From a virus (Duplodnaviria > Heunggongvirae > Uroviricota > Caudoviricetes): DNA of 64,000 nucleotides. Numbering within the stretch: the first letter of the stretch is position 1; every line of letters begins with the position of its first letter. Below the pieces are notes generated by a model. The model was given only the letters and a program-made list of their open reading frames with translations, did no database searches and was not told the DNA's origin. Positions 410 to 59,666 of this stretch are shown piece after piece. Location of the stretch: IMG/VR virus record IMGVR_UViG_3300036768_001066. One strand, given 5' to 3'. The position numbers and the translations under genes were made by a program.

Positions 410-1267
410 TCAGGCTGGTATTTGCGGGGGCGGCGGTCCGTTTATCCCCGATATTCCTGGTTCCACTGGGTTACCATTAGCATCGGTCTCATTCTTTATG
501 TCGGTCATTTGCGGGTCCACGTCCACAGACAACTTAGCGAACACGCCAGATACCCCAGAATACGAAAACATCTCGTTTCCAATACCGTGGTGCATTGTTT
601 TGCCCCTGAACATCTCCGTTGTGGCGTCAAGAACAGGCTGGTATGCCTCCATCTCGAGTGTGAACTTTATGGATATTGCCTTGCTGGTATCGTCCCCGTA
701 AGTGAAGGTTATCGGCTTCTCGATCGCGTAATCCTGGGAGAACCCCACCTGTAGGGGTATGCGCATTCCCTTGTAATCTACCGCGAAGGTGGCTGCCTTA
801 TAGAACGTAGCTATAGTCTCCTGAATTATCTTGTACGCCTCGACCAACGTGTTTGATAGAATCTCCACGTCGTAAGTCAAGGTCAGGGGTATGACATTCA
901 GGAAAGCCGAGAATGCCTGTATGCTGCCGTCAACCTCCTTGTTGTATGTACCGCGGTTGAACTTGTTGGTCAGGGCCGCCGTGTTTATGGTCATGGCGGT
1001 AAGATTGATGACGCCCCTCGGCACCGGATCGGTGTTGCCCTCTGTGAACGTAGGACCGTCGCAATTGGACTGGTAGTTTATGTAGAAGTCTTGCAAGAAC
1101 CTCTCGCTGCCGTACATCGCATAGAAGAACGGCACCGGGATCTGCCTCACGTCCTCGTCCGACACCACCTGGGTGATGTAGACCTTCTTATTCAGGAAGT
1201 CCAGGAGCCCAATTGCGATGCACCTAAGCAGCACATCGTCAGTATTATACTTATCATTGAATGGCAA
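410..1267 (-). CDS. hypothetical phage protein (285 aa), Pro/Gly-rich C-terminus
   Basis: Long ORF co-oriented with and immediately downstream of the gp46-like gene. No diagnostic motif recognised. C-terminus is NGNPVEPGISGINGPPPPQIPA. Confidence 0.5.
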   Translation of the reverse strand: MPFNDKYNTDDVLLRCIAIGLLDFLNKKVYITQVVSDEDVRQIPVPFFYAMYGSERFLQDFYINYQSNCDGPTFTEGNTDPVPRGVINLTAMTINTAALTNKFNRGTYNKEVDGSIQAFSAFLNVIPLTLTYDVEILSNTLVEAYKIIQETIATFYKAATFAVDYKGMRIPLQVGFSQDYAIEKPITFTYGDDTSKAISIKFTLEMEAYQPVLDATTEMFRGKTMHHGIGNEMFSYSGVSGVFAKLSVDVDPQMTDIKNETDANGNPVEPGISGINGPPPPQIPA

Positions 1268-1292: not shown

Positions 1293-2966
1293 TCACGCCT
1301 TTTCTATTCGCAGGTTGGAGAACCCATCTTTCTTCTCTATTTCTATCTTGTAGTCGAATACCTCCTGCGGGAGCGGATTGTGTGATATTACGAAAATATT
1401 GAGGTTCAATTCGTGGCACAGCTTGTTTAAGATCTGCAAGATAGAGTGTATTCCGTCCTGGTCAACCGAGGAGAATATCTCGTCGAGGAACAACAGGTTT
1501 AGTGTCGGGAACTTCATCTTCATAAGCCTTATCCAGGCCACGAGTATTACGAAGTCCACCTTCTTACTCTCGCCGAAGCTGAGCGTCGCTGGCGAGATCT
1601 CCTCGCCGAGGTGGTACAGCTTTGCGTCGAAGTTCTCATCGAACGTCACCTGGTAGTCGAGGTGCATCTGGAGCATCATGCTGTATATCTCGTTATTGAA
1701 CGCGGGTATTATTCTCTGCATCACGAGTTTCTTTATGCCGTTCTCGCCAACCGCCTCTTCCACAACTTTGTTCCATGCGAGCTTCTCCTCGTCGATAGCT
1801 CGCTGGTCCGCCCATTCTTTCATCTCCGCTTCTACTCTCGCTATCACATTACGTAAGCCCTCTGTCGAAGTAGTCGAGTTCTTGTTAGACTCGAGATTTT
1901 TCAGCATGGTGTTAAGCCCGCTTATCTTGCTCTGAATTTTAGACCCCTTGTCCATGAGGTCACGTTCTTCCTGGTTTATTGCGTCCCTCCTCTCCTTGAC
2001 GGCCTTGGCTTCTTTTATCAGTTTGGCCTCCTCCTCTGCCGCAACGTCGCGATCCTTCTCGAGCCCATGCTTCAAAGACACATGGTATTCTGAATCGAGG
2101 TCCGCGCCACATTCTGGGCACTGATTGTTGTCGAATAACTTGAGCCTATCGTTCGCGTACTTGACAGTGCCTCTCGCCTTTGTTATCAGCTCCAGGTATT
2201 TGTTTGCTTCCTTCTCTACCTCTTCCTTTCTTATGCGAAACTCCTTGACCTTCTCCGACTGCAGGTTGAGAAGATTCTTGAAGCTCTCCAGTTGTTTTAC
2301 AACGTCCGCTATCTCCTCGTCGTTATTCTCCTGCAGCTTCTTCATCGTCTCCTCGAGCTGGGTCATCGAGCTATCGAGTGACACCTTGGCGCCTTGCAGT
2401 TTGCTGTGCAGGGAATCGATGCTGTCCTTGAGGCTCTTGCTGCTCTTGCCGAGTATCTCCTTCATCTCATTTAATATGGAGTAGCCAAGTACGCGGTCTA
2501 CTATCTCGCGCTTATCCTTGGCCCCCATGCTCATGAAACTCTTAAAGTCGTTTATGTTCAATGATATTACGTTGGTGAATACGTAGAACGGAATATCAAG
2601 CAGCTCCTCGCAGAGATACTCATTTGGTCCACGACCGCTATAGTTCGCCTTGTCGTATGCTTGTCCGTCTATGGACAGCTCCATACCGTTTGGCATAACG
2701 GTGCGTTCCGACACTATCTTGCGTCCCTTGCTGTCTATAGTTAATCTAACCCACCCGTTCTTGTTGGACCTGTTGGCGAGATCCTTCAGGCTTTTCTTGT
2801 CCACCTTGCCGTATGTACCAAACTTAATCGCATCCGATATTGTGGACTTGCCCGCGCCATTTTTGCCCAGTATCAAAAAGAACCCAGCAGGCCCACGAAG
2901 GTCTATTACCTGGTCCTTGTTGCCATAGCTTGCGAAGTTTCTGAATTCTATTGTTTCGTATCTCAT
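1293..2966 (-). CDS. sbcC: recombination/repair exonuclease ATPase subunit, SbcC/Rad50-like (T4 gp46-like)
   Basis: Walker A GKNGAGKST near the N-terminus. Long coiled-coil middle with a CPECG zinc-hook-like CxxC. C-terminal Walker B/D-loop LLFLDEIFSSVDQDG followed by the H-loop VISH. The C-terminal block aligns with the T4 gp46 tail (LILDEVFDGSFD...FIISH). Confidence 0.85.
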   Translation of the reverse strand: MRYETIEFRNFASYGNKDQVIDLRGPAGFFLILGKNGAGKSTISDAIKFGTYGKVDKKSLKDLANRSNKNGWVRLTIDSKGRKIVSERTVMPNGMELSIDGQAYDKANYSGRGPNEYLCEELLDIPFYVFTNVISLNINDFKSFMSMGAKDKREIVDRVLGYSILNEMKEILGKSSKSLKDSIDSLHSKLQGAKVSLDSSMTQLEETMKKLQENNDEEIADVVKQLESFKNLLNLQSEKVKEFRIRKEEVEKEANKYLELITKARGTVKYANDRLKLFDNNQCPECGADLDSEYHVSLKHGLEKDRDVAAEEEAKLIKEAKAVKERRDAINQEERDLMDKGSKIQSKISGLNTMLKNLESNKNSTTSTEGLRNVIARVEAEMKEWADQRAIDEEKLAWNKVVEEAVGENGIKKLVMQRIIPAFNNEIYSMMLQMHLDYQVTFDENFDAKLYHLGEEISPATLSFGESKKVDFVILVAWIRLMKMKFPTLNLLFLDEIFSSVDQDGIHSILQILNKLCHELNLNIFVISHNPLPQEVFDYKIEIEKKDGFSNLRIEKA

Positions 2967-4078
2967 AAGTCTGGCATCCTTTCTTTGTTCTTGCGTTCCT
3001 CGGCCTGGGTGTGCAAGAAATTTAGTGTGTTCAACAATCTGTTTTTTTCCGTATCACCGAATCCGGTGGCATCGACATAATTCTTTATGAGCGAGGGTAT
3101 ACTCAGTTCAGAGTCAAAGTTGTCGAGCTTATTTTCGTTCAGATCTATAAGGTTGTCCTGTGTCGGTCTGAAGTTAACCTCGCGGTAGCATCCCTCAACG
3201 TACGACAAGAACGTGCTTACCGGTACTTTGAACATATCGTTCGACTCTACGTGCAAGTCGACAAAATTATTCTTGAATCGCTGTCTCGCTTCTTCTGGCG
3301 TCATGTCAAGTAGCGAGTCCAACTTGTAAGATAAGAACCTTGGGGAATATGTGTTCTCTATCCAAGTTTCTTCGTCCGTAGATAAATCGAGAATGGTAAC
3401 ACCCTTAGCATTACCCGAGTCAGAACGCGTTAGCTGATAAGGCGCGCCAAGCATATTAACGTTTGCCTTCTTCTGTGCGAAATGTATGTGACCAGAGTAC
3501 ACGCGCTTGAACTGCTTGTACGTACTTATGTCACAACCGTGAGTGACTTCCACGTTCTTATTGAACTTCATACCGGCGATGTCTGCATGACACAATAAAA
3601 AGTCGTTTCCGATGCCGAGCTCTTGGACACACTTGCCTTCCTCCTCGTGGTTCTTCCTCCATGGCATCAATAACCATTTGGTGTGTCCGAGTTTCACAGA
3701 TACCGGCTCCTCATAAAGGTGGACGCCTGGGATGAAACCGATGGGCTTTAACGAGTTAATGTCGTTAGAAGACTTGAGGTAACAATCGTGGTTACCGAGT
3801 ATGCAGATTATGCCGTCCTTGAATATGCTGGACAGCTTCTGGAACACGGTCATGCCGAGATTGAGCACGCGCAGGTTTATGGCATTGCGGCTGTCGAACA
3901 CATCGCCGCCGACCATGAGTATGTCGCCAGGCTTATACTCGCGCTCGCACAGAGGTATGAACCAATTAAGGAAGTAGTCTTCCTGGATGTCCATCCACTC
4001 CACGAGGTTGCTCCGCACGCCAAAATGGATGTCCGTTATGAACCAGACACGCTTCGCTGCTGGGAAATTTGTAACCAT
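2963..4078 (-). CDS. sbcD: Mre11/SbcD-like nuclease subunit (T4 gp47-like)
   Basis: Calcineurin-like phosphoesterase motifs: FITDIHFG, MVGGDVFD, ILGNHD, GHIH. The start overlaps the gp46-like stop (ATGA-type coupling). Confidence 0.85.
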   Translation of the reverse strand: MVTNFPAAKRVWFITDIHFGVRSNLVEWMDIQEDYFLNWFIPLCEREYKPGDILMVGGDVFDSRNAINLRVLNLGMTVFQKLSSIFKDGIICILGNHDCYLKSSNDINSLKPIGFIPGVHLYEEPVSVKLGHTKWLLMPWRKNHEEEGKCVQELGIGNDFLLCHADIAGMKFNKNVEVTHGCDISTYKQFKRVYSGHIHFAQKKANVNMLGAPYQLTRSDSGNAKGVTILDLSTDEETWIENTYSPRFLSYKLDSLLDMTPEEARQRFKNNFVDLHVESNDMFKVPVSTFLSYVEGCYREVNFRPTQDNLIDLNENKLDNFDSELSIPSLIKNYVDATGFGDTEKNRLLNTLNFLHTQAEERKNKERMPDL

Positions 4079-14574: not shown

Positions 14575-15478
14575 TCATCTTGTGCACGAGCGCTCGATCT
14601 GCATCTGGTGGTACGCCTCGTTGGACAGTATGGTCTCTTCCGGATTGTCGTTGAACCAGTTCTCCTTGAATTTTTCCGCCGCTGCTTGGTCAACTACGAA
14701 CACGTTATCCACTTTATTGAGATTGATAACTGCCTGGACCTTGTCCGAATCATAGTGCCAGTTGTGATTATCCACTTTTCCGTCACCCCACTCTATCCCG
14801 CAGTAGATGAACCCGTCGTTCATCAGGCTGGCGTACTGATGATTCTTAGGCGGGGACACGCTCAAATCGAGCAACCTCCGACTCCCGTCTGTGCCATAAT
14901 TCCCATTGTGCTCCTTGCTCCTAATCCTGTTGGCCGTATCTCGGCTCACCGATGACGTGAATCGTGAACCTGCGAATATCGCATCGTGAACCTGCGAATA
15001 TCGCATTCGTGAGGTATGTCGGGTTCGGCTCGGCAAACAAGAAATGATCCACAACTTGCACTGGGTGGGACTCGATGTAGTCGAGCACATCGTAAAGGCC
15101 CTCGAGCATCTGTTTCTCCACGTACTGCAACTTGTACTCCGTTGGTTCAAACTCGCTGCCGCTCGGAAAATGACCGCGCCCCGCGTCATCGGTCGCGGTG
15201 AATATATCCCTGGTGTCAAAGTTGTACTGTAGCACGATCCTCGACTTACCGTCCATCTTGCGGTGAAAACGCTTTCCGTTTACGAACTCATTGCGATCCT
15301 TATCCCAATCATCACCACAATACACCTCCAGAGAGCCAGAGCCGTCCTCGTGCAGGCACATCTCCATGCCGCGCACGCGCATGGACCAGGAATTGATCAT
15401 GACGTCGGCGCATAGCCTGGGGTCGGTTTTTATTCTGGAGACTCTAAGCACGTGCTTATTTTTTATCAATATCGACAT
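14575..15478 (-). pseudogene. hypothetical protein gene split by a 22-bp perfect tandem duplication
   Basis: ORFs 14921-15511 and 14575-15219 overlap in different frames. Both encode the peptide AIFAGSR across the two copies of CGTGAACCTGCGAATATCGCAT (14963-14984 and 14985-15006). Removing one copy joins ...PNPTYLTNAIFAGSR to FTSSVSRDTANRIRSKEHNGNYGTDG... into a single ~300-aa ORF. The N-terminal half of ORF 14575-15219 is Arg/Ser/Cys-rich out-of-frame junk. Confidence 0.5.
14963..15006. repeat. 22-bp perfect tandem duplication (x2) inside a coding region
   Basis: CGTGAACCTGCGAATATCGCAT appears twice back-to-back. The length is not a multiple of 3, so it produces a frameshift. Confidence 0.8.
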
Positions 15479-15662
15479 CGTAAATGAATTCGACGGAGAT
15501 GCCAGGCACATTCCAGTTGCGCATTGATAGCGCGTCCTCGATACGCTTGCGCATGTCGTTGATGCGCTCAGTCAAGCAGTCTCCCTTGAACTCATAATGA
15601 AGCTTGTTGCCGTTTAGGCTACTGAGAGTAGCATCTTTGTCTTCCAGTTTAAAAAATCTCAT
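15456..15662 (-). CDS. hypothetical protein (68 aa)
   Basis: ORF whose 3' end overlaps the start of the disrupted downstream gene. Plausible composition, no motif recognised. Confidence 0.4.
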   Translation of the reverse strand: MRFFKLEDKDATLSSLNGNKLHYEFKGDCLTERINDMRKRIEDALSMRNWNVPGISVEFIYDVDIDKK

Positions 15663-15849
15663 GGTTCGTGCAATTTTATTCCGTTAACGTTTGTCTCTCC
15701 GGCGATAGCTTCTCAAAATGCTGGAACCTGTATTTTCCGGTTGTAGTGGTCTCTGGCACTTGTTGATGGTGGCAAGGGCCACCATCGAAATCGTCCGCAC
15801 CCCTGTAGACATACAGCAGACGAAAATCTTTGGCGTACTCCATCATATC

Positions 15850-16980
15850 CTACTTCTTTTTGACGATGTGAGACAACGCGTTTTTCTCATGCAAATTTGC
15901 AATCAACTCGATGTAGGTACCATACTCCGCGATCTCTTCTGCGCTGTAACCTTCGGTTTCACCGATGCTCTTGAAGTTATTTTGCCAATATTTTATAGAG
16001 TATTTCATGCAGCCGATTTGAATCTCATCTGAGCCCCAATACGACACGTGATGTCTTGATCCGTTGAAGCTGAGAGAGCGCACGATAACGCATTCCTCGA
16101 TGCTCGCGCCGTCGCCGATGATCGTGCCGTCGCCGATGATCGCGTACCGGCTGATTTTCGCGTCCCATCCGATGCTCGCGCCGTCGCCGATGATCGCGCC
16201 GTCGCCGATGCTCGCGCACCGGCCGATTTTCGCGCCTTCGCCGATTTTCGCGCCCCGGCCGATGTTCGCGCGGGGGCCGATGCTCGCGCCGTCGCCGATG
16301 ATCGCGCCGTCGCCGATGCTCGCGCGGGGGGCGATGATCGCGCCTTCGCCGATGATCGCGCGGGGGCCGATGTTCGCGCGGGGGGCGATGCTCGCGCCGT
16401 CGCCGATGCTCGCGCCCCGGCCGATGCTCGCGCCCCGGCCGATGTTCGCGCCTTCGCCGATGTTCGTGCGGGGGCCGATGCTCGCGTCCCATCCGATGTT
16501 CGCGCCGTCGCCGATGCTCGCGCCTTCGCCGATGTTCGTGCGGGGGCCGATGATCGCGCCGTCGCCGATGCTCGCGCGTGGGCCGATTTTCGCGCGTGGG
16601 GCGATGCTCGCGCCTTCGCCGATGATCGCGCCGTCGCCGATGATCGCGCCGTCGCCGATGTTCGTGCCCCGGCCGATGCTCGCGCCCCGGCCGATGCTCG
16701 CGCCTTCGCCGATGTTCGTGCGGGGGCCGATGCTCGCGTCCCATCCGATGCTCGCGCCTTCGCCGATGTTCGTGCGGGGGCCGATGCTCGCGCCTTCGCC
16801 GATGCTCGCGCCGTCGCCGATGCTCGCGCCCCGGCCGATGATCGCGCCGTCGCCGATGCTCACGCGCTGGCCGATGCTAATGCCACGCTTTTTGAACTCA
16901 GCGGAGATGTCGCTGAGTTTATCGTACTCGAATGTTTCCCACCGTGACTTTTCCAGTGTAAAAAGTTTTACCGATTTCAT
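15850..16980 (-). CDS. hexapeptide-repeat (left-handed beta-helix) protein, ~44 consecutive repeats of x-x-[SNIT]-I-G-x
   Basis: Repeats of the form GASIGD / GASIGP / RTNIGE / GASIGW / DASIGP fill ~270 aa, between a short N-terminal region (MKSVKLFTLEKSRWETFEYDKL...) and an ~80-aa non-repeat C-terminal domain. The start is set at the internal ATG 16980 because the longer ORF would overlap the upstream gene. The repeat DNA is visibly GC-richer than the flanks and has strict 18-bp periodicity. Confidence 0.7.
   Translation of the reverse strand: MKSVKLFTLEKSRWETFEYDKLSDISAEFKKRGISIGQRVSIGDGAIIGRGASIGDGASIGEGASIGPRTNIGEGASIGWDASIGPRTNIGEGASIGRGASIGRGTNIGDGAIIGDGAIIGEGASIAPRAKIGPRASIGDGAIIGPRTNIGEGASIGDGANIGWDASIGPRTNIGEGANIGRGASIGRGASIGDGASIAPRANIGPRAIIGEGAIIAPRASIGDGAIIGDGASIGPRANIGRGAKIGEGAKIGRCASIGDGAIIGDGASIGWDAKISRYAIIGDGTIIGDGASIEECVIVRSLSFNGSRHHVSYWGSDEIQIGCMKYSIKYWQNNFKSIGETEGYSAEEIAEYGTYIELIANLHEKNALSHIVKKK
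16064..16900. repeat. 18-bp periodic coding repeat array (GC-rich) underlying the hexapeptide-repeat gene
   Basis: Iterations of cgccgatgctcgcgcc[n]. The spurious long ORFs in other frames (16025-16744 minus, 16064-17140 plus) come from this periodicity. Confidence 0.7.
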
Positions 16981-17063
16981 CCTTATTGGTTTTATTGTAC
17001 AAATATACAATGAATATCTGAACGGGCGCTCAGGCCTGTTCAACTGGTCCCAAGTAACAACAT

Positions 17064-17702
17064 TCAGGGACGGACAGCTACGATTTTGCAACCGTTCTGA
17101 CGTGCAATCTCCAAGATTGGGTCGATGTTGTTCGAACTGATTTGGTTTGTAACGGCCACAACAGAACCATCCTTCAATTTGATGAACTGGTCCGCCTGGC
17201 AGAAGTAACGCTGCTTACCGCTCGCGTTCATCTTGCGGGCCGTGCTTGCCTCGGTGAACACACCGTAGTTGCGCACCAACTCAGAAGGGAAAATTTCAAG
17301 CAACTTCTTGAAACTGCATCCCTGTTTCTCAGCGATGAATTTCACAACGGCCAAAACTAATTTGCCCTTGCGAAATTCCTGTCCGTTGAATTGGTACTTG
17401 GAGAAATCGCGTCCGAAGTTCTTACCTTCCGACTTGTCGGTCTTGGCAGTTTTCTCAACCTCGGCTGCTTTTGCGGCTTTTGCGGCTTTTGCCTTTTCAA
17501 CAGAGGGCATAACTACCGAGAACAACTTCACACTCTTAGCCCCCTTTTGGAAAGTGTCAATTTGTTTACCAAGCTCACCGATAACGGCAAACACTTCGGA
17601 ACGTTTGATACCAGTTGCTTTCTCAATGGCCTTTGCATCGCTCTTCGGGTTCTTAGTTAAGAATGCTGTGACTTTAGCTTTGTTGTCTGTTGTTGTTTTC
17701 AT
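17064..17702 (-). CDS. lysine/alanine-rich putative DNA-binding protein, paralog A (shares a C-terminal ~100-aa domain with 23357-24109)
   Basis: N-terminal region then histone-H1-like AKAAKAAKAAEVEKTAKTDK. C-terminal domain YQFNGQEFRKGKLVLAVVKFIAEK...RYFCQADQFIKLKDGSVVAVTNQISSNNIDPILEIARQNGCKIV aligns with FKFNGIEYGKGPLVHAILTAHVEA...RYFLKESQIIKLADCSIAVCNQFTSDNIQAFLGAARKLGYSI of the paralog. Confidence 0.55.
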   Translation of the reverse strand: MKTTTDNKAKVTAFLTKNPKSDAKAIEKATGIKRSEVFAVIGELGKQIDTFQKGAKSVKLFSVVMPSVEKAKAAKAAKAAEVEKTAKTDKSEGKNFGRDFSKYQFNGQEFRKGKLVLAVVKFIAEKQGCSFKKLLEIFPSELVRNYGVFTEASTARKMNASGKQRYFCQADQFIKLKDGSVVAVTNQISSNNIDPILEIARQNGCKIVAVRP

Positions 17703-17786
17703 GGTCTTGTATTGATTATGGAGTAAAGTTAAGAGGTTTTTCCTATTCCGTAAAAATATTTCGGAAAATACTTACTAACAATTTCC

Positions 17787-17887
17787 GTAACTTATTGATT
17801 ATCAGCAAGATAGAGTATAAATGGAAAAGTCCTGGAAAACTTAATTTCCAGGACTTTTCCATAATGTATTGATAATCAATAAGTTAC
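17787..17887. repeat. nested inverted repeats in a 380-bp non-coding gap
   Basis: Outer 18-bp perfect IR: GTAACTTATTGATTATCA (17787-17804) and TGATAATCAATAAGTTAC (17870-17887). Inner 16-bp perfect hairpin: GGAAAAGTCCTGGAAA (17823-17838) and TTTCCAGGACTTTTCC (17845-17860). TATAAATG box at 17816-17823. Confidence 0.5.
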
Positions 17888-17935
17888 AAGTCACTCACCC
17901 TGAAGCATCTGCCGTGTGGTCACCTTTTGTTATCT

Positions 17936-18056
17936 CCTACGGTGACGGCGTACGCCGAGGTAGGAATCCACAGGTGCAAGTTCAAGGTCGGCGACCGTGA
18001 AGCCCAAGCCAAGACATTCCACAACAACAGGAACCTCGGCGTAGAGCCGCCTACGG
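17936..18056. other. GC-rich structured non-coding element (candidate small RNA or cis-regulatory structure)
   Basis: Local base composition is much GC-richer than the flanks. 12-bp palindrome CGGCGTACGCCG (17946-17957). 11-bp long-range complement TACGCCGAGGT (17951-17961) pairs with ACCTCGGCGTA (18033-18043). Repeated CCTACGG boxes. No ORF with a plausible start. Confidence 0.35.
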
Positions 18057-18080
18057 AAGGACTTGTCCACACAGATTTGT

Positions 18081-18908
18081 TTAAAGATTTTTGAATGCAC
18101 GCCGCACGTCTCTCGTGAACTTGCCGAAGTCTGTGTCGTCGAGTATCTCTGGGAATCGCCACGCGAACCCGCGGTCCATCATGTCCTCCTGGAACTTGAT
18201 GTATGCACCAGGCTCTGGGGTACCGTCCTCCCTGAAGTCATATCCCATGAACCAGAGATTGTTTGCTATGGAAGACGTAGAGTGGTAATCGTGGGATACC
18301 ACCACTATGGTGTTTAAGTCATCAAGATTTGCGACCTCCGTGATGACCTCGCATACCTCTTCAGTCATATTCGGGTCAAGTCCTGAGAACGGCTCATCCA
18401 TCAACAAGAAATTTTCCGAACACAACAACTGCTGAATAATCGCGATACGTTGCTTCTGTCCACCGGATAGTTGCGCCGGATAGAACTTATGCTTGTCGGC
18501 CAATTTGAATCGCTCGAGGTAGAACTCAATCTTATCCTTCTGCTCCGCCTTACTTAAGCGAGTGTTCTTTGCGGCCGCAAGCTGCAAGTTTCCGAGAATC
18601 GAACGATGTTGAAACAACGGATACGCTTGTGCGACTACGCCAACCATGCCAGGATAAACCGGCTTGCCATTTACGAGCACCTCGCCGGTTGTGGGTTTAC
18701 GTAATCCGGAAAGTATGTTGAACAGCATCGTCTTCCCACGACCGGATGGTCCGAGAAATCCGACGATCTGTCCGGTAGTCTTGACAGGACGTACAACGTC
18801 CTTAATCTCGAGATTTATATCTCGCAGGATTAGCTTATCGTCGAGCTTAAGCGAAACATCTGTGACCTTAAGGATAGTCTTTTCGAGTATTTGATATTCT
18901 TGCTTCAT
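18081..18908 (-). CDS. ABC transporter ATP-binding protein
   Basis: Walker A GPSGRGKT. Q-loop. ABC signature LSGGQKQR. Walker B LLMDEPFSGLD. H-loop VSHD. Stop/start overlap with the permease gene. Confidence 0.85.
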   Translation of the reverse strand: MKQEYQILEKTILKVTDVSLKLDDKLILRDINLEIKDVVRPVKTTGQIVGFLGPSGRGKTMLFNILSGLRKPTTGEVLVNGKPVYPGMVGVVAQAYPLFQHRSILGNLQLAAAKNTRLSKAEQKDKIEFYLERFKLADKHKFYPAQLSGGQKQRIAIIQQLLCSENFLLMDEPFSGLDPNMTEEVCEVITEVANLDDLNTIVVVSHDYHSTSSIANNLWFMGYDFREDGTPEPGAYIKFQEDMMDRGFAWRFPEILDDTDFGKFTRDVRRAFKNL

Positions 18909-19702
18909 TTTCTTTCAAGTGTTATGTATGCGTAAGGACAAAGAGTCTTGCGCACGAAGCCAAGCATCCAGTCAAAGAACATACCGAGTATCAAAATCAT
19001 TATCTGGATAGCGTAAACCGCATCGAGGTGGAATACTTTGTTCTGGTCGTTGAGTATCACACCGATACCGCCTTCCGACCGGCATAGGTTCTCTACCATT
19101 GCAAGCATCATCCACGCAATCGCAAAGTTCTGTCGTATCACATCAAGGACCTGGTCCGCCTTTCCGAGTATGATGACTTCCCACACCGTCTCCCACTCAC
19201 TCTTCTTGAGTGTTCTCGCGTAGTCAAGCTCCGCCTTGGTAACACTCGATATGATTGCCGAGATGGACGTAACGTGAAATACAGTTATGCCGAACACGAG
19301 CAGCGCCACCTTCTGTGACGTGGTGTCCTTGCATATAAGGGCAAATAGGAAAGTTAAGCCTATAGTTGTCATGAATCTCGCCTTACCAACGAACGCCGTG
19401 AACGGCCGGAAGAAAGGCATGACTGCCAGGTATGCTATCACCAATGATATGATGGTGGCCCAGAACATTCCCTTAGCGCATAGCCAGATACTCGACAGGA
19501 GCTCTGCGAGAAATCCGTTAGCGAATAAACCCTTGGTAGCTTCCCATATATTTGGTAAACTCGGGAGGAGTTGTGTGTGACTGAACGTCCAGTATATTAG
19601 GACGGTCGCCACCCATATTGTCAACACCAGGAGCTGCTTGTTTTGTTTGAGCTGCTTGTTTGGCGTGAATATGTCTTTGATGAATGCTGTAACTTTATTC
19701 AT
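18905..19702 (-). CDS. ABC transporter permease (binding-protein-dependent inner-membrane component)
   Basis: Six hydrophobic segments. EAA-like loop ELDYARTLKKSEWETVWEVIILGKA. The start is set at ATG 19702 (MNKVTAFIKD...) because the longer frame would run through the upstream terminator. Confidence 0.75.
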   Translation of the reverse strand: MNKVTAFIKDIFTPNKQLKQNKQLLVLTIWVATVLIYWTFSHTQLLPSLPNIWEATKGLFANGFLAELLSSIWLCAKGMFWATIISLVIAYLAVMPFFRPFTAFVGKARFMTTIGLTFLFALICKDTTSQKVALLVFGITVFHVTSISAIISSVTKAELDYARTLKKSEWETVWEVIILGKADQVLDVIRQNFAIAWMMLAMVENLCRSEGGIGVILNDQNKVFHLDAVYAIQIMILILGMFFDWMLGFVRKTLCPYAYITLERK

Positions 19703-19713
19703 GACGAATGGAT

Positions 19714-19741
19714 AAAAAAGAGCCGGTAAAATACCGGCTCT
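19714..19741 (-). terminator. rho-independent terminator (minus strand)
   Basis: Hairpin AGCCGGT-aaaat-ACCGGCT. On the minus-strand RNA it is followed by UUUUUU (top A6 at 19714-19719). It sits right after the stop of the OmpA-like gene and before the permease start. Confidence 0.55.
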
Positions 19742-19746
19742 CAATG

Positions 19747-20145
19747 TTAACGGCCAAGTTTGATTTCAACACGGCGGTTCTTCTTACGACCCGCATCAGT
19801 GTTGTTGTCCCCGATAGGAGTGGTCTCGCCAAAGCCCTGAGCAGACACCTTGTTACGGAATATCTTCTGGTCTTTGTTGATTAACCACTGACGAACCGCT
19901 TCAGCACGTTGCTGTGATAACTGCATGTTCATTCCATCGTCACCCTGATTATCCGTGTGACCCTCGATGGACACGAGGAGGTTCTCTGCGATAATCAAGT
20001 CGTTTGCCAACTGATTAAGAGTAGGGATAGATGCAGGTAAGATGGTGGCGGAGCCGGTCTGGAACTCGATAACGTACGACTTGTTAGACACAAGCTGCGA
20101 CATCTTCTGGTTCTCCGAGAACGTAGGCATAGAAGCCACTGTCAT
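19747..20145 (-). CDS. OmpA/MotB-family peptidoglycan-associated domain protein
   Basis: C-terminal OmpA-like signature: IEGHTDNQGDDGMNMQLSQQRAEAVRQWL...GFGETTPIGDNNTDAGRKKNRRVEIKL. Start ambiguous; the longer frame overlaps the upstream gene. Confidence 0.55.
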   Translation of the reverse strand: MTVASMPTFSENQKMSQLVSNKSYVIEFQTGSATILPASIPTLNQLANDLIIAENLLVSIEGHTDNQGDDGMNMQLSQQRAEAVRQWLINKDQKIFRNKVSAQGFGETTPIGDNNTDAGRKKNRRVEIKLGR

Positions 20146-21491
20146 GTTGGCGTTGTTTTTATTGTTTGTATACACTGACTGCACGTACTCAAGTCCACCA
20201 CCTCCTCGTAAGGGAAGTACGTAGGCATTACATCCGGGTATGCTTTAACACATAGGTCACCAAAAGTAACATACACGGCTTTGTACTTATCGGTGCTTCC
20301 GTTTAAGCCGTAATACTCCGCAAGGTCCGCAAGGTTGAACACGCGGGATCCACCGATTTCGTTTATGTTGCCCTGCGCATCTGTAAATTGCTTACCTACG
20401 AAGTACTGCTGCCAGTCATCAGCCGTCAAGCCAGCGTCTTGGTATATCGCATCCTGCACACGGCAAGCAAATGCCAATGCCGAAGTGTGGGACTTAACCT
20501 GGTCGCCACCTAAACAACCAGCAAGGATGAATTTCTCAACGCTCGCTTTGTTGTCCTGTAACCACTTCTTACAAGCCAACCACGTGTTAGGCATCTGCGC
20601 ACCATTATCCTTAGTCGAGAATACTGTTACACCACCACGACCCTCGAAACAGATTTTGTCTCCCGGAGTCCACGTAACGCAACCGTCCACTGTGACAGTT
20701 GTATCTCGGCCTGTCCTTTTACCATTGATAACGATAGGACGCTTCTCAGTGGTCTTAGACACGTAGATTTGGGCTGCTTTAATGTAGTCATCGATACCCA
20801 TCCAGTTGATGGCCGTAGGGTCGTACGTGGTAGGGTCGTTGTTGACGTCAATACCGTTAAGGTCGGCATACTTCATTAGAATATTCCAGTCGCCGTCACG
20901 CAACACACCAACCCAAAGGGAACCGCGCAATTTCTGCGGGTCTTGACGGAAGGAACCATCCTTATAGATGGCCTTGCCCTCACCGAATGAAGCACCGAAC
21001 GCTGTGAACGCCTGAATAATGTAATCGTCACCGAGTTGTTTTTTGATTTGGTCGTTAAGACCTGCGAGATAAGACGGAACCCCGTCTCCCATCCAAGCAA
21101 TCATGTGATAGCCCTTTGACGAGTTCTTGTTTCCGGAAGCGTAGTCCTGCGCGAAGGCGAACAATTGGTTGCCCTGCTCGGTACAGTTGTTCTGGCAGAT
21201 AAGACGCAATTTAACGCCTTGTTCCTCCATGATAGATCCCTTCATTGTTGAAGGACCACCGTTTGCGTAAGCCACACCGGCCTGCGCGTTCCAACCCATG
21301 ATACCCGCTCTCCATTCTGGAACTGCAAGGGTTGTCATTTGTGTAGTGTCGGGGAGCGCACGCTTTGGCGCGTTCGCGTTCTTGTCATACTGCAGTGGCG
21401 GAAGATCCGCTACCGTAATTTGTCCCGACTGTTTTGTTGGTTTTTGGAACCAGCCGAAGAATTTTGTATCCGACTCCAAGGGTTCCACCAA
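20142..21491 (-). CDS. putative periplasmic substrate-binding protein of the adjacent ABC transporter (assignment tentative)
   Basis: 449-aa ORF upstream of and co-oriented with the permease and ATPase. Mixed alpha/beta composition. No transmembrane segments. The listed start is a TTG. No clear signal peptide was found from either the TTG or internal ATGs, so its role is inferred from position only. Confidence 0.35.
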   Translation of the reverse strand: MVEPLESDTKFFGWFQKPTKQSGQITVADLPPLQYDKNANAPKRALPDTTQMTTLAVPEWRAGIMGWNAQAGVAYANGGPSTMKGSIMEEQGVKLRLICQNNCTEQGNQLFAFAQDYASGNKNSSKGYHMIAWMGDGVPSYLAGLNDQIKKQLGDDYIIQAFTAFGASFGEGKAIYKDGSFRQDPQKLRGSLWVGVLRDGDWNILMKYADLNGIDVNNDPTTYDPTAINWMGIDDYIKAAQIYVSKTTEKRPIVINGKRTGRDTTVTVDGCVTWTPGDKICFEGRGGVTVFSTKDNGAQMPNTWLACKKWLQDNKASVEKFILAGCLGGDQVKSHTSALAFACRVQDAIYQDAGLTADDWQQYFVGKQFTDAQGNINEIGGSRVFNLADLAEYYGLNGSTDKYKAVYVTFGDLCVKAYPDVMPTYFPYEEVVDLSTCSQCIQTIKTTPT

Positions 21492-23324: not shown

Positions 23325-23356
23325 TTTTGTAAAGTTAGATAAAAAACGGGCTCCTA

Positions 23357-24109
23357 TTACTGCTCTATGGAATAACCAAGCTTCCTGGCCGCGCCGAGGA
23401 ACGCCTGAATGTTGTCGCTCGTGAACTGGTTGCACACCGCGATGCTGCAGTCAGCCAACTTTATTATTTGCGACTCCTTCAAGAAATAACGCTTGCGATC
23501 CTTCGAAATCTCCTGTGCCTCTTCGAGCTTCTTGAATATCCCATAGCTGCGCAGCAATGCGTCTGGGAACGCGAGCTTCATCTGGTCGTGCTTGATGCCC
23601 TTGTTCGCCTCCACGTGGGCCGTGAGAATAGCATGGACAAGCGGGCCCTTGCCGTACTCGATGCCGTTGAATTTGAAGTTCGAGCGGTCGCGGGCGCCCT
23701 TCGGTCTCACGACCTTCGGTGTGAGGATCTTCACCTTCGCTATCCTGTCGCGGTTCACGCTTTTAGGTTTAGCGTCCGTAGGTCCTCTCTTAGAGCGCGG
23801 ACGGTCCTCGTCATCTCCGAAATCCCCCTCGTCTCCGTTGTTGTCGAGACCCGCGAGGATTCTCTCCATCTCTCTTTGAATGAGCTTCTCTTTGTTAACG
23901 CTTGACTTGTTGGGATATTTCTTGAAATACTCGGCAGCAATCGGCTTATATTCGTCAAGTAACTGGAGGTACTCCTCCTTATTGATGGACATTAGCTCAT
24001 GGAACATTCTCCCGATGCCTGAATTTTTTGGTGTGAGGTTTCCCTCTTTGATTTGAGCGATAGTGCCTGCTATCCGCTCCTTTAAGTTTGCTTCCGATGT
24101 TTCTGTCAT
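23357..24109 (-). CDS. putative DNA-binding protein, paralog B of 17064-17702
   Basis: Shares the C-terminal ~100-aa domain with paralog A. N-terminal helical region plus an acidic/basic linker (GDEGDFGDDEDRPRSKRGPTDAKPK). Confidence 0.55.
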   Translation of the reverse strand: MTETSEANLKERIAGTIAQIKEGNLTPKNSGIGRMFHELMSINKEEYLQLLDEYKPIAAEYFKKYPNKSSVNKEKLIQREMERILAGLDNNGDEGDFGDDEDRPRSKRGPTDAKPKSVNRDRIAKVKILTPKVVRPKGARDRSNFKFNGIEYGKGPLVHAILTAHVEANKGIKHDQMKLAFPDALLRSYGIFKKLEEAQEISKDRKRYFLKESQIIKLADCSIAVCNQFTSDNIQAFLGAARKLGYSIEQ

Positions 24110-24526
24110 GGTTAAATTATGTACTGCTAAATTAGAAACCGCAGATAAAATAAGTGACGGAAAACAGAATAATTACCAACGTGCATTTGTTTGAAACACT
24201 CCGTTATAATGGTGACAAGCGTTTCGGACCAAAATAAAAATTCCGACATAAATGAAAAAGCCCCGAACTGGTATCAATCGGATGTAATTTTTGGGGAGCG
24301 GCCAGGCGACTTTTTCTTTCAAGCTTTCCTTCCAGTTCTCAAATATATGAGGTTCTGCCCATTTGGGCACCAGAATGCAATTCTCCAACAACTTATTGCC
24401 GCCAGGTATCACCACGGCCTTGGTCTTCTATCGGGCGGACCTCACGGTTGTCAAAGTGTCAAGATCCGAATATCGTCTTGCGCATGACAGTGACGCTGCC
24501 GCCGCTCATTTGTGTAGTATTCCATT

Positions 24527-26476: not shown

Positions 26477-26494
26477 AGAGTAAAGTTACGAATA

Positions 26495-38490: not shown

Positions 38491-38524
38491 AAGCCCGATC
38501 TTAGCAGGTCGGGCTTTTCTCTTT
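38491..38524 (+). terminator. rho-independent terminator (plus strand)
   Basis: 8-bp stem AAGCCCGA / TCGGGCTT with a 10-nt loop. Followed by TTCTCTTTG. Confidence 0.65.
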
Positions 38525-59613: not shown

Positions 59614-59635
59614 AATCCGCGGTAATAATTCACAG

Positions 59636-59666
59636 AACCCTCGCTAAGTCGAGGGTTTTTTATTTC
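59636..59666 (+). terminator. rho-independent terminator (plus strand)
   Basis: 8-bp stem AACCCTCG / CGAGGGTT with loop ctaagt. Followed by TTTTATTTC. Confidence 0.6.

Follow-up and report, generated by a model that had tools for sequence, protein, structure and literature searches.

What is the function of the gap of ~380 bp (17703-18080) in which nested perfect inverted repeats lie beside a GC-rich stretch in the phage record IMGVR_UViG_3300036768_001066? The window is the whole stretch of 64,000 nucleotides (64 kb) analyzed here; the gap is located between the stop codon of an ABC-transporter ATPase gene and the start codon of a gene designated pA, and the minus strand carries all genes from ~400 to 31,200 of the window. 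An initial annotation proposed a small regulatory RNA, a replication origin or attP-like recombination site, or a terminator/operator complex between the ABC operon and the pA gene. The last proposal is supported by the comparative evidence, with the refinements that the outer repeat corresponds to two copies of a DNA motif rather than to a stem and that the putative promoter lies downstream of the repeat. On balance, the gap is probably a composite intergenic control region, in which gene relics are followed by a terminator hairpin flanked by two probable protein-binding motifs at fixed distances from the pA promoter. The contigs of the ten database relatives of pA were used for comparison; these and further contigs are referred to by numbers preceded by L.

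Nested inverted repeats and the outer motif

The perfect 18-nt inverted repeat reported by the initial annotation (17787-17804 and 17870-17887) is present, and the perfect hairpin that it encloses has a stem of 18 bp (17821-17838 and 17845-17862, with a 6-nt loop) instead of the 16 bp given there. Among all inverted repeats of the window that span up to 150 nt, these two are the longest, and the outer arms have no other copy in the window at up to three mismatches (none of 100 shuffles gives two matches). The region 17780-17895 folds as RNA with -50.8 kcal/mol compared with -16.8 +/- 2.8 kcal/mol for shuffled sequences (z = -12.25); for the gap as a whole, the z-scores of the two strands are -7.3 and -7.1. 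The pairing energy of the nested element lies far beyond the shuffle control, whereas that of the GC-rich stretch is at chance level (z = -0.92; 36 of 200 shuffles are at least as stable).

A gapless alignment of the nested element is obtained with L003, L004, L037 and L010, in the last of which pA is only 41% identical, so the conservation among relatives that had been proposed as a check is found for 17787-17887. This synteny bears on whether the 101-bp element could have arrived between the operon and pA as a miniature inverted-repeat mobile element, as its small size and its terminal perfect 18-nt inverted repeats might suggest. Such an origin is highly improbable: the element occurs once in 64 kb, is without a target-site duplication (its flanks are TTTCC and AAGTC), and keeps its synteny and colinearity even in relatives with only 41% pA identity. 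A further short inverted repeat adjoining the element, CGGAAA-N14-TTTCCG (Table 1), is conserved in L003, L004 and L037 and occurs in L010 as TGGAAA-N5-TTTCCA.

Covariation of the hairpin and of the outer arms was evaluated on a hand-registered alignment of five lineages with 500 shuffles. In the 14-bp core of the inner hairpin, 97.1% of the cells are paired, a value as high as that being reached by none of the shuffles, and out-of-register control pairings lower the paired fraction to 28-70%. Double changes are observed at pair 6/31 (U-A, C-G, G-C) and pair 4/33 (A-U, G-C), and three single changes in the stem yield G·U pairs, which can form on the gene-sense strand only. The sense strand is also 3-5 kcal/mol more stable than the antisense strand in L004 and L010, which together with the sense-strand-only G·U pairs indicates an RNA hairpin that is read in the gene direction. 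The extra four base pairs that give the 18-bp stem in the window are not conserved in relatives.

Covariation is confined to this inner stem. The outer 18-bp helix has 91% of its cells paired, which 60 of 500 shuffles also reach, with eight cells unpaired; its covariation score is 0.111 vs. 0.099, with 191 of 500 shuffles as high, and L037 carries non-compensated changes in the outer arms. These values are relevant to an alternative in which the whole nested repeat would be one RNA structure in read-through transcripts, acting as an RNase III processing site, as a 3' stabilizer separating the ABC-operon and pA messages, or as a small RNA. The very stable fold, the high paired fraction of the arms and one pair changed on both sides are consistent with such a structure, and phage RNase III sites have a geometry of two stems plus an internal loop, which the nested element resembles. 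Nevertheless, this alternative is unlikely, given that the covariation of the outer helix is not above the shuffles, that the 3' arm would be untranscribed if the inner hairpin terminates, and that no Rfam family matches at the gathering threshold in the window. A permissive Rfam search of 17500-18300 returned only sub-threshold matches to MIR8001, His_leader and rli40, the miRNA and His-leader matches being due to the hairpin only. A search for tRNA and tmRNA found none. Relatives do not share the sequence that precedes the hairpin, and the outer arms are without covariation; the small regulatory RNA of the initial annotation is thus not supported.

The outer arms are instead parts of two ~25-bp sites, s1 and s2 (Table 1), of the general form TAACTTATTGAT-W-ATCAATAAGTTA. 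The motif can be written as TGATWATCAA-N4-TTA, with a palindromic core TGAT-W-ATCA and a better-conserved flank ATCAR-N4-TTA. The similarity is about equal when s1 is compared with the reverse complement of s2, when it is compared with s2 directly, and when each site is compared with its own reverse complement; in the window, L003 and L004, both sites are self-symmetric about TTGAT-W-ATCAA at 9-11 of 12 positions. The perfect 18-nt repeat results from the opposed orientation of two motif copies, each of which has its well-conserved half on the outer side. The outer repeat is thus best described as two facing copies of one DNA motif, not as an RNA stem.

The distribution of the motif among relatives is informative in this respect. 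Site s1 is conserved in L003, L004, L037 and L010, and s2 is the copy present in every relative. A single motif copy without the hairpin precedes pA in L009 and L038, and one copy is visible before pA in L006, where the contig begins ~10 nt upstream of that copy; L039 carries a degenerate copy after the terminator. L012 has two neighboring copies with a core-to-core distance of 27 bp, and its hairpin is downstream of both. Arm motifs that stand alone, or adjacent with the hairpin outside them, argue against a single RNA structure. A second module in L006 (2930-3110), in front of an unrelated 220-aa gene, has two motif copies next to each other, a hairpin and the same putative promoter as before pA (TTATCTTTAC with AATCAAT).

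The spacing of the sites is conserved as well. The cores of s1 and s2 are exactly 74 bp apart in five lineages, and seven lineages, with pA identity as low as 41%, keep a TAnCTTTAC box 72-73 nt downstream of the s2 core, although the sequence between the two has diverged. Each interval corresponds to approximately seven helical turns, which would place both sites and the promoter on the same helix face. Conserved phasing to the promoter is a property of double-stranded DNA and a bound protein and not of an RNA stem, which further disfavors the single-RNA alternative and suggests that s1 and s2 are most likely phased protein-binding sites.

Within the 64-kb window, TGATWATCA is found nowhere else. 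Non-coding parts of other IMG/VR contigs, which are unrelated and for the most part low in GC, also contain the composite motif; there the A-N4-TTA extension, although not forced by the search, occurs at 7 of 20 loci compared with a chance expectation of ~1-2%. This occurrence in unrelated phage contigs indicates that the motif is not private to this phage group. Arrays of at least four copies are seen at about 2233-2500 (-) of L016 and about 556-720 (-) of L035; L036 has a site-hairpin-site arrangement at 111-201, and in L026 (4089-4260, -) the motif lies upstream of a TATCTTTAC box.

Such iteron-like arrays in unrelated contigs are among the observations that could indicate a DNA-transaction site, such as an origin bound by an initiator or by IHF, a recombination site of the attP type or a switch that inverts between the 18-nt repeats. 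The element is AT-rich (local GC 28-32%), its inverted repeats are perfect, three matches to the IHF consensus lie within 100 bp, and the adjacent pA has a predicted winged-helix domain. A site of this type is nonetheless quite improbable here. The only switch of strand and skew occurs at ~31-32 kb, without a GC-skew inflection near 17.8 kb, and the window contains only two sites and no iteron array. The locus is not unique either, since L006 has the module in front of an unrelated gene as well. No recombinase (integrase or invertase) gene is present among the neighboring genes examined. The inter-repeat segment has the same orientation in the window, L001, L003, L004, L037 and L010, and a single orientation is seen in all assemblies; only 65 bp separate the arms, and the promoter-like box is outside the repeats. 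Neither the replication origin nor the attP-like site suggested initially is retained.

Putative terminator hairpin, promoter-like box and candidate binding proteins

The inner hairpin has several features of a terminator in the gene direction. AAAA precedes the GC-cored stem, UUUUCCAUUUAU follows it, and the 18-bp stem contains seven G-C pairs. The tail after the 10-bp GC core, UUUUCCAUUUAU, has five U in the first 8 positions and eight in 12, and only UUAUACUC remains after the full 18-bp stem; the hairpin of L010 has a clean UUUUUAUUUU tail. The hairpin is located 29 nt past a relic stop codon (17891-17893) and 219 nt past the stop codon of the ABC ATPase. A dedicated scan for a hairpin plus U-tract flagged it among 20 matches in the window, compared with ~7.6 in shuffles, and comparable sites occur at other gene ends (26536-26508, 38491-38516 and 59634-59659). 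In L039 and L040, the upstream gene is cold-shock-like and a non-homologous canonical terminator occupies the same slot. The inner hairpin is most likely a Rho-independent terminator of the OmpA/ABC operon: in RNA, 17862-17821 would present an A-tract, a GC-cored stem and a U-rich tract and would end the OmpA-like/permease/ABC-ATPase transcripts.

The TATAAATG box reported on the plus strand is present at 17816-17823. A role as a T4-type late promoter was rejected: the box lies opposite to the coding strand of every local gene, L004, L037 and L010 do not retain it, and TATAAATA shows no enrichment in the window. A Fur box was likewise set aside; it rested on 13 of 19 matches to the consensus, counted by eye, and the site is not before the transporter operon.

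A TAnCTTTAC box is invariant upstream of all pA homologs, ~20-45 nt before the start codon. Its form in the gap, TAACTTTAC, occurs twice more in the window (23329-23337 and 26480-26488), in both cases on the sense strand, in an intergenic region and just before an open reading frame (ORF), and the copy at 26480-26488 is ~20 nt downstream of a clear terminator hairpin. The related pattern TAACTTTR has 11 matches in the window vs. 3.1 expected, a number that none of 100 shuffles reaches. Its minus-strand sites include 11281, 17724, 21594, 21602, 23330 and 26481, and at least four minus-strand sites in the minus-strand gene block are intergenic and just upstream of ORFs. Two tandem TAACTTTG boxes precede the OmpA/ABC operon.

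The -7 promoter element of Bacteroidota has been described as TAnnTTTG (PMC9723704), and TAnCTTTAC/TAACTTTR, which resembles this element, is a candidate for a promoter box in this phage. In the gap, the putative promoter probably drives pA. Additionally, the inspected start codons are without Shine-Dalgarno sequences, and the absence of such sequences fits Bacteroidota (PMC6847099); the host is probably a member of this group.

An IHF/HU-type protein and a winged-helix dimer, for instance pA, are the two candidates for a protein that would bind s1 and s2. The documented IHF consensus is WATCAANNNNTTR (PMC9452768, PMC10380432); both halves of s1 match it, and the better-conserved motif half WATCAATAAGTTA fits it. 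Three of the four WATCAANNNNTTR matches in the window lie within 17788-17886, and the window count itself is not significant (20 of 100 shuffles give at least four). Among relatives, ATCAR and TTA are kept, whereas N4 varies.

The core TTGAT-W-ATCAA of s1 and s2 is a dimer-type palindrome with two half-sites and is identical to the operator core of FabT, a member of the MarR family. FabT has been described as a FASII repressor with the operator core TTGATTATCAA (PMC11452403). For pA, an AlphaFold model with a mean pLDDT of 74.9 yields winged-helix matches in Foldseek with a probability of 1.0 and weak E-values, and a Pfam search gives no family match. Autoregulation by pA as the sole role of s1 and s2 is weakened by the same module before the unrelated 220-aa gene in L006.

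Read along the minus strand, the proposed control region would comprise the relics (18080-17888), then the terminator (17862-17821) flanked by s1 (centered at 17874) and s2 (centered at 17800), and then the box (17731-17723). In double-stranded DNA, s1 and s2 may serve as sites for a dimeric or architectural protein that, with s1, s2 and the promoter on one helix face, could modulate the pA promoter by activation, repression or looping and insulate it from upstream read-through. The repeats and their conservation, the covariation limited to the inner stem, the relic origin of the island and the constant spacing are observed in the sequences; that the hairpin terminates transcription, that the box acts as a promoter and that a protein of either candidate type binds is inferred.

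Several observations weigh against parts of this reading. The U-tract UUUUCCAUUUAU is interrupted by CC, and a generic terminator scan did not flag the hairpin, because its full 18-bp stem is followed only by UUAUACUC; the generic sigma-70/terminator scan gave nothing informative in the gap, with counts at or below the shuffle level. The missing covariation of the outer arms is a weak negative, given that only five lineages are available and that the arms are still 91% paired. The sites are located at about -84 and -158, unusually far upstream for simple repressor operators. No HU/IHF homolog was detected in the window by tblastn, and canonical IHF is not known in Bacteroidota. The Bacteroidota host itself is deduced only from the promoter-like motifs and the missing Shine-Dalgarno sequences at the inspected starts.

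A more far-reaching and speculative idea, which we regard as doubtful, is that TGATWATCAA-N4-TTA may be recognized by a new factor that binds or bends DNA and is in wide use among Bacteroidota-type phages or in their hosts. Such a factor would build a three-point structure (s1, 74 bp, s2, 72 bp, promoter) that loops out the operon terminator and couples read-through or insulation to the activation of a dedicated promoter class, and would act at the iteron-like arrays in other phages.

The cassette is best regarded as an ordinary regulatory region plus gene relics, and the conspicuous repeats are explained without recourse to a novel RNA or origin. It provides a first working regulatory annotation for an uncultured phage of ~374 kb, comprising a terminator type, a promoter box that hints at a Bacteroidota host and a phased upstream motif. 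Only the phased, recurring motif and its binder merit follow-up; because unrelated phage contigs also contain the motif, knowing what binds it could help more widely to annotate phage regulatory regions.

Gene relics and the genomic setting of the gap

The GC-rich stretch was initially regarded as a structured island with a 12-nt palindrome and an 11-nt long-range pair. The palindrome CGGCGTACGCCG (17946-17957) and the pair (17951-17961 with 18033-18043) both exist, whereas a special structure does not. The GC content of the island is 57-58%, compared with 45-59% in the neighboring coding sequence and a window mean of 49%. The statement that no ORF with a sensible start fits is true in a narrow sense, as only TTG- or GTG-initiated ORFs of 43-80 aa overlap the gap; the island is nevertheless former coding sequence, as revealed by tblastn and blastn comparison with the small genes of L003.

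In L003, whose pA is 93% identical, the interval between the ABC ATPase and pA is ~1,150 bp long and contains three small genes of 148, 73 and 58 aa (the latter two designated g73 and g58). The same interval holds genes of 157, 86 (g86 in L004) and 73 aa in L004 and L005 (pA 81% identical), and among more distant relatives one gene in L009 and two in L010. The small-gene content upstream of pA is thus variable among relatives, and the interval of the window is the shortest. The window sequence 17912-17711 is colinear with the L003 region just upstream of pA (91.6% identity).

Beyond this colinear part, the fragments occur in mixed orientations (Table 1). By blastn, 18027-18010 and 17995-17974 correspond to L003 3476-3459 (18/18) and 3441-3420 (22/22) in reversed orientation, whereas 17967-17938 and 17937-17925 correspond to L003 3527-3556 (29/30) and 3570-3582 (13/13) in direct orientation. 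The inverted relic is 48% identical to g73 residues 19-49, including KFKVGD..KTFHN (E = 3.4e-5, tblastn). The palindrome CGGCGTACGCCG is native to the intact g73 gene and is also found at L003 3537-3548, and the 11-nt long-range pair arises because two g73 pieces (codons around LGV) stand opposed. No trace of the 148-aa gene of L003 is present in the gap.

Judging from the sequence, the island (17888-18080) consists of non-functional remains of two small genes, both of which relatives still carry intact. The mixed orientation of the g73 and g58 fragments and the absent 148-aa gene indicate that this debris would have been left by a deletion combined with an inversion or an inverted duplication. 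The plus-strand ORF 17927-18094 (55 aa, TTG start) and the minus-strand ORF 17920-18162 are unlikely to be real genes, being without ATG, chimeric or antisense to gene fragments, and without the N-terminal part of the homolog. As a scrambled gene relic with chance-level folding, the GC-rich island is not supported as a functional element. The locus represents a clear small case of accessory-gene decay, in which deletion and inversion left recognizable codons on both strands.

Table 1. Positions of the features in and around the gap, in window coordinates
Feature	Position	Strand	Details
ABC-transporter ATPase	18081-18908	-	Pfam ABC_tran, E = 1e-25; closes the OmpA-like/permease/ATPase operon as its last intact gene
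Fragment, antisense of the third small gene g58 of L003 (3671-3686)	18061-18076	-	16/16 nt, blastn-short
Inverted relic of a small gene (g73 of L003, g86 of L004)	17972-18058	+	Reads RCKFKVGDR-EAQAKTFHNNRNL-GVEPPTE; opposite strand to all neighboring genes
Direct relic of the g73 C-terminus	17925-17967	-	SYLGVRRHR (17965-17939; 9/9 residues, g73 56-64), then GEITK codons
Relic of the last g58 codons and stop (..QMLQGE*)	17891-17929	-	7/12 residues to QEFYTVQVLQGE, tblastn
Site s1	17862-17886	.	25-bp quasi-palindrome TAACTTATTGAT-T-ATCAATACATTA, center 17874; outer half is one 18-nt arm
Inner hairpin (putative terminator)	17821-17862	-	18-bp perfect stem; core 17845-17858 / 17825-17838; loop 17839-17844; U-rich tail UUUUCCAUUUAU 17817-17828
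Site s2	17788-17812	.	TATCTTGCTGAT-A-ATCAATAAGTTA, center 17800; outer half is the other 18-nt arm
Short inverted repeat CGGAAA-N14-TTTCCG	17762-17787	.	Encloses conserved GTTAGTAA
Promoter-like box TAACTTTAC	17723-17731	-	T-run 17751-17757 before; conserved AATCAAT 17711-17719 after
pA	17064-17702	-	212 aa; predicted N-terminal winged helix, K/A-rich linker, conserved C-terminal domain

The gap arrangement is no assembly artifact: an independent assembly of a different sample (Logan) matches the window at 100% identity along 4,989 bp that include the gap. The source contig of the window is 373,759 bp long. Its gene content is T4-like (an SbcCD-like nuclease, a DnaB-like helicase, ribonucleotide reductase, an RNA ligase/gp63-like protein, PRPP synthase and many glycosyltransferases), and database relatives are found for very few of the phage proteins. 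Together, the gene content and the scarcity of relatives point to a large uncultured phage with a T4-like set of replication and nucleotide-metabolism genes. A blastn search of GenBank phage records with window 15000-21000 gave no match.

Relatives of pA are similarly rare. None was found in GTDB genomes with either a single sequence or an alignment as the query. In IMG/VR, the single-sequence query gave no match and the alignment query gave only matches to the C-terminal domain at 23-26% identity, and a metagenome scan for pA yielded only 4 loci. The window also encodes a 250-aa pA paralog (23357-24109, -) that has only the C-terminal domain in common (35% identity, E = 1e-17). Its upstream region (24110-24300) contains a degenerate, loop-expanded version of the gap hairpin with the same tail GGGGCTTTTTCATTTAT and is without the s1/s2 motif.

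Genes for a permease and an OmpA-domain protein are located upstream of the ABC ATPase, and the gene order around the ATPase is common to the window, L003, L004, L009 and L010. The OmpA-domain protein is a single protein of ~605 aa in these four relatives. In the window, its gene (19747-21491, -) contains a frameshift that yields two overlapping ORFs of 449 and 145 aa with a junction near 20187-20193; tblastn identity of 97-98% runs on in another frame, and the split is also present in the independent assembly L002, where the two are called as 445 and 132 aa. The frameshift and the scrambled small genes downstream suggest that the accessory OmpA/ABC operon is decaying in the lineage of the window.

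The genes downstream of pA differ among relatives and include GIY-YIG genes and others. In the window, an ORF of 413 aa (15850-17091, -) consists nearly entirely of hexapeptide repeats of the left-handed beta-helix type (e.g., IGxGASIG) and has a GC content of 68-76% vs. 49% for the window, especially at 16500-16850. Because the relatives carry other genes at this place, the hexapeptide-repeat gene looks like a lineage-specific insertion. L003 (5056-5484) and L010 (6427-6786) have their GIY-YIG genes, which are homing-endonuclease-like, a few genes farther downstream than pA, and the window has no counterpart at the corresponding place, which provides further evidence of a hyperplastic region.

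Comparison with known systems

Compared with replication origins, the gap has an AT-rich stretch but only two motif copies and no skew change. It differs from invertons in that the promoter-like box is outside the repeats, only one orientation is seen, and no recombinase gene is present among the neighbors examined. With IHF sites, it shares the better-conserved arm half AATCAATAAGTTA, which is an exact fit to the consensus, and the phased position of s2 ~80 bp upstream of the promoter, which is typical of architectural sites; the palindromic core TGAT-W-ATCA, however, is not a feature of IHF sites.

The FabT operator ANTTTGATTATCAAATT (PMC11452403) has a palindromic core, TTGAT-T-ATCAA, identical to that of the gap motif. 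The likeness extends to paired sites upstream of a putatively regulated gene and to pA, a predicted winged-helix protein encoded immediately downstream. However, the organism and gene context are unrelated, and pA is not a MarR-family protein by sequence. The gap sites do not overlap the promoter, as the s2 core is 72-73 nt upstream of the box and s1 is 74 bp further upstream, and the motif also precedes a gene other than pA.

As in intrinsic terminators, a GC-cored stem-loop on the sense strand directly follows the last stop codon, with an A-tract and with compensatory and G·U changes in the stem. The tail is U-rich when counted from the 10-bp GC core, is interrupted by CC, and shrinks to UUAUACUC after the full stem. 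The putative terminator of the gap also differs in that its 18-bp stem is unusually long and perfect in this strain.

The composite terminator/promoter cassettes of T4-like phages known as PeSLs (PMC2839356, PMC4122927) are the nearest analogue among described systems. The gap box is of the TAnnTTTR type and not a sigma-70 early promoter, and the paired s1/s2 motif is not part of PeSLs. Only one s1/s2 cassette exists in the 64-kb window, with no second copy of the arms or the hairpin, and other terminator/promoter pairs in the window (e.g., 26536-26480) have only the 9-mer box in common with it. Despite these differences, PeSLs border hyperplastic small-gene regions (PMC4122927), and the gap likewise combines a compact terminator and putative promoter (the hairpin and TAACTTTAC within ~140 bp) at the border of variable small genes. 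Zero, one, two or three small genes lie between the ABC ATPase and the cassette across the window and its relatives, in a phage that carries a T4-like gene set.

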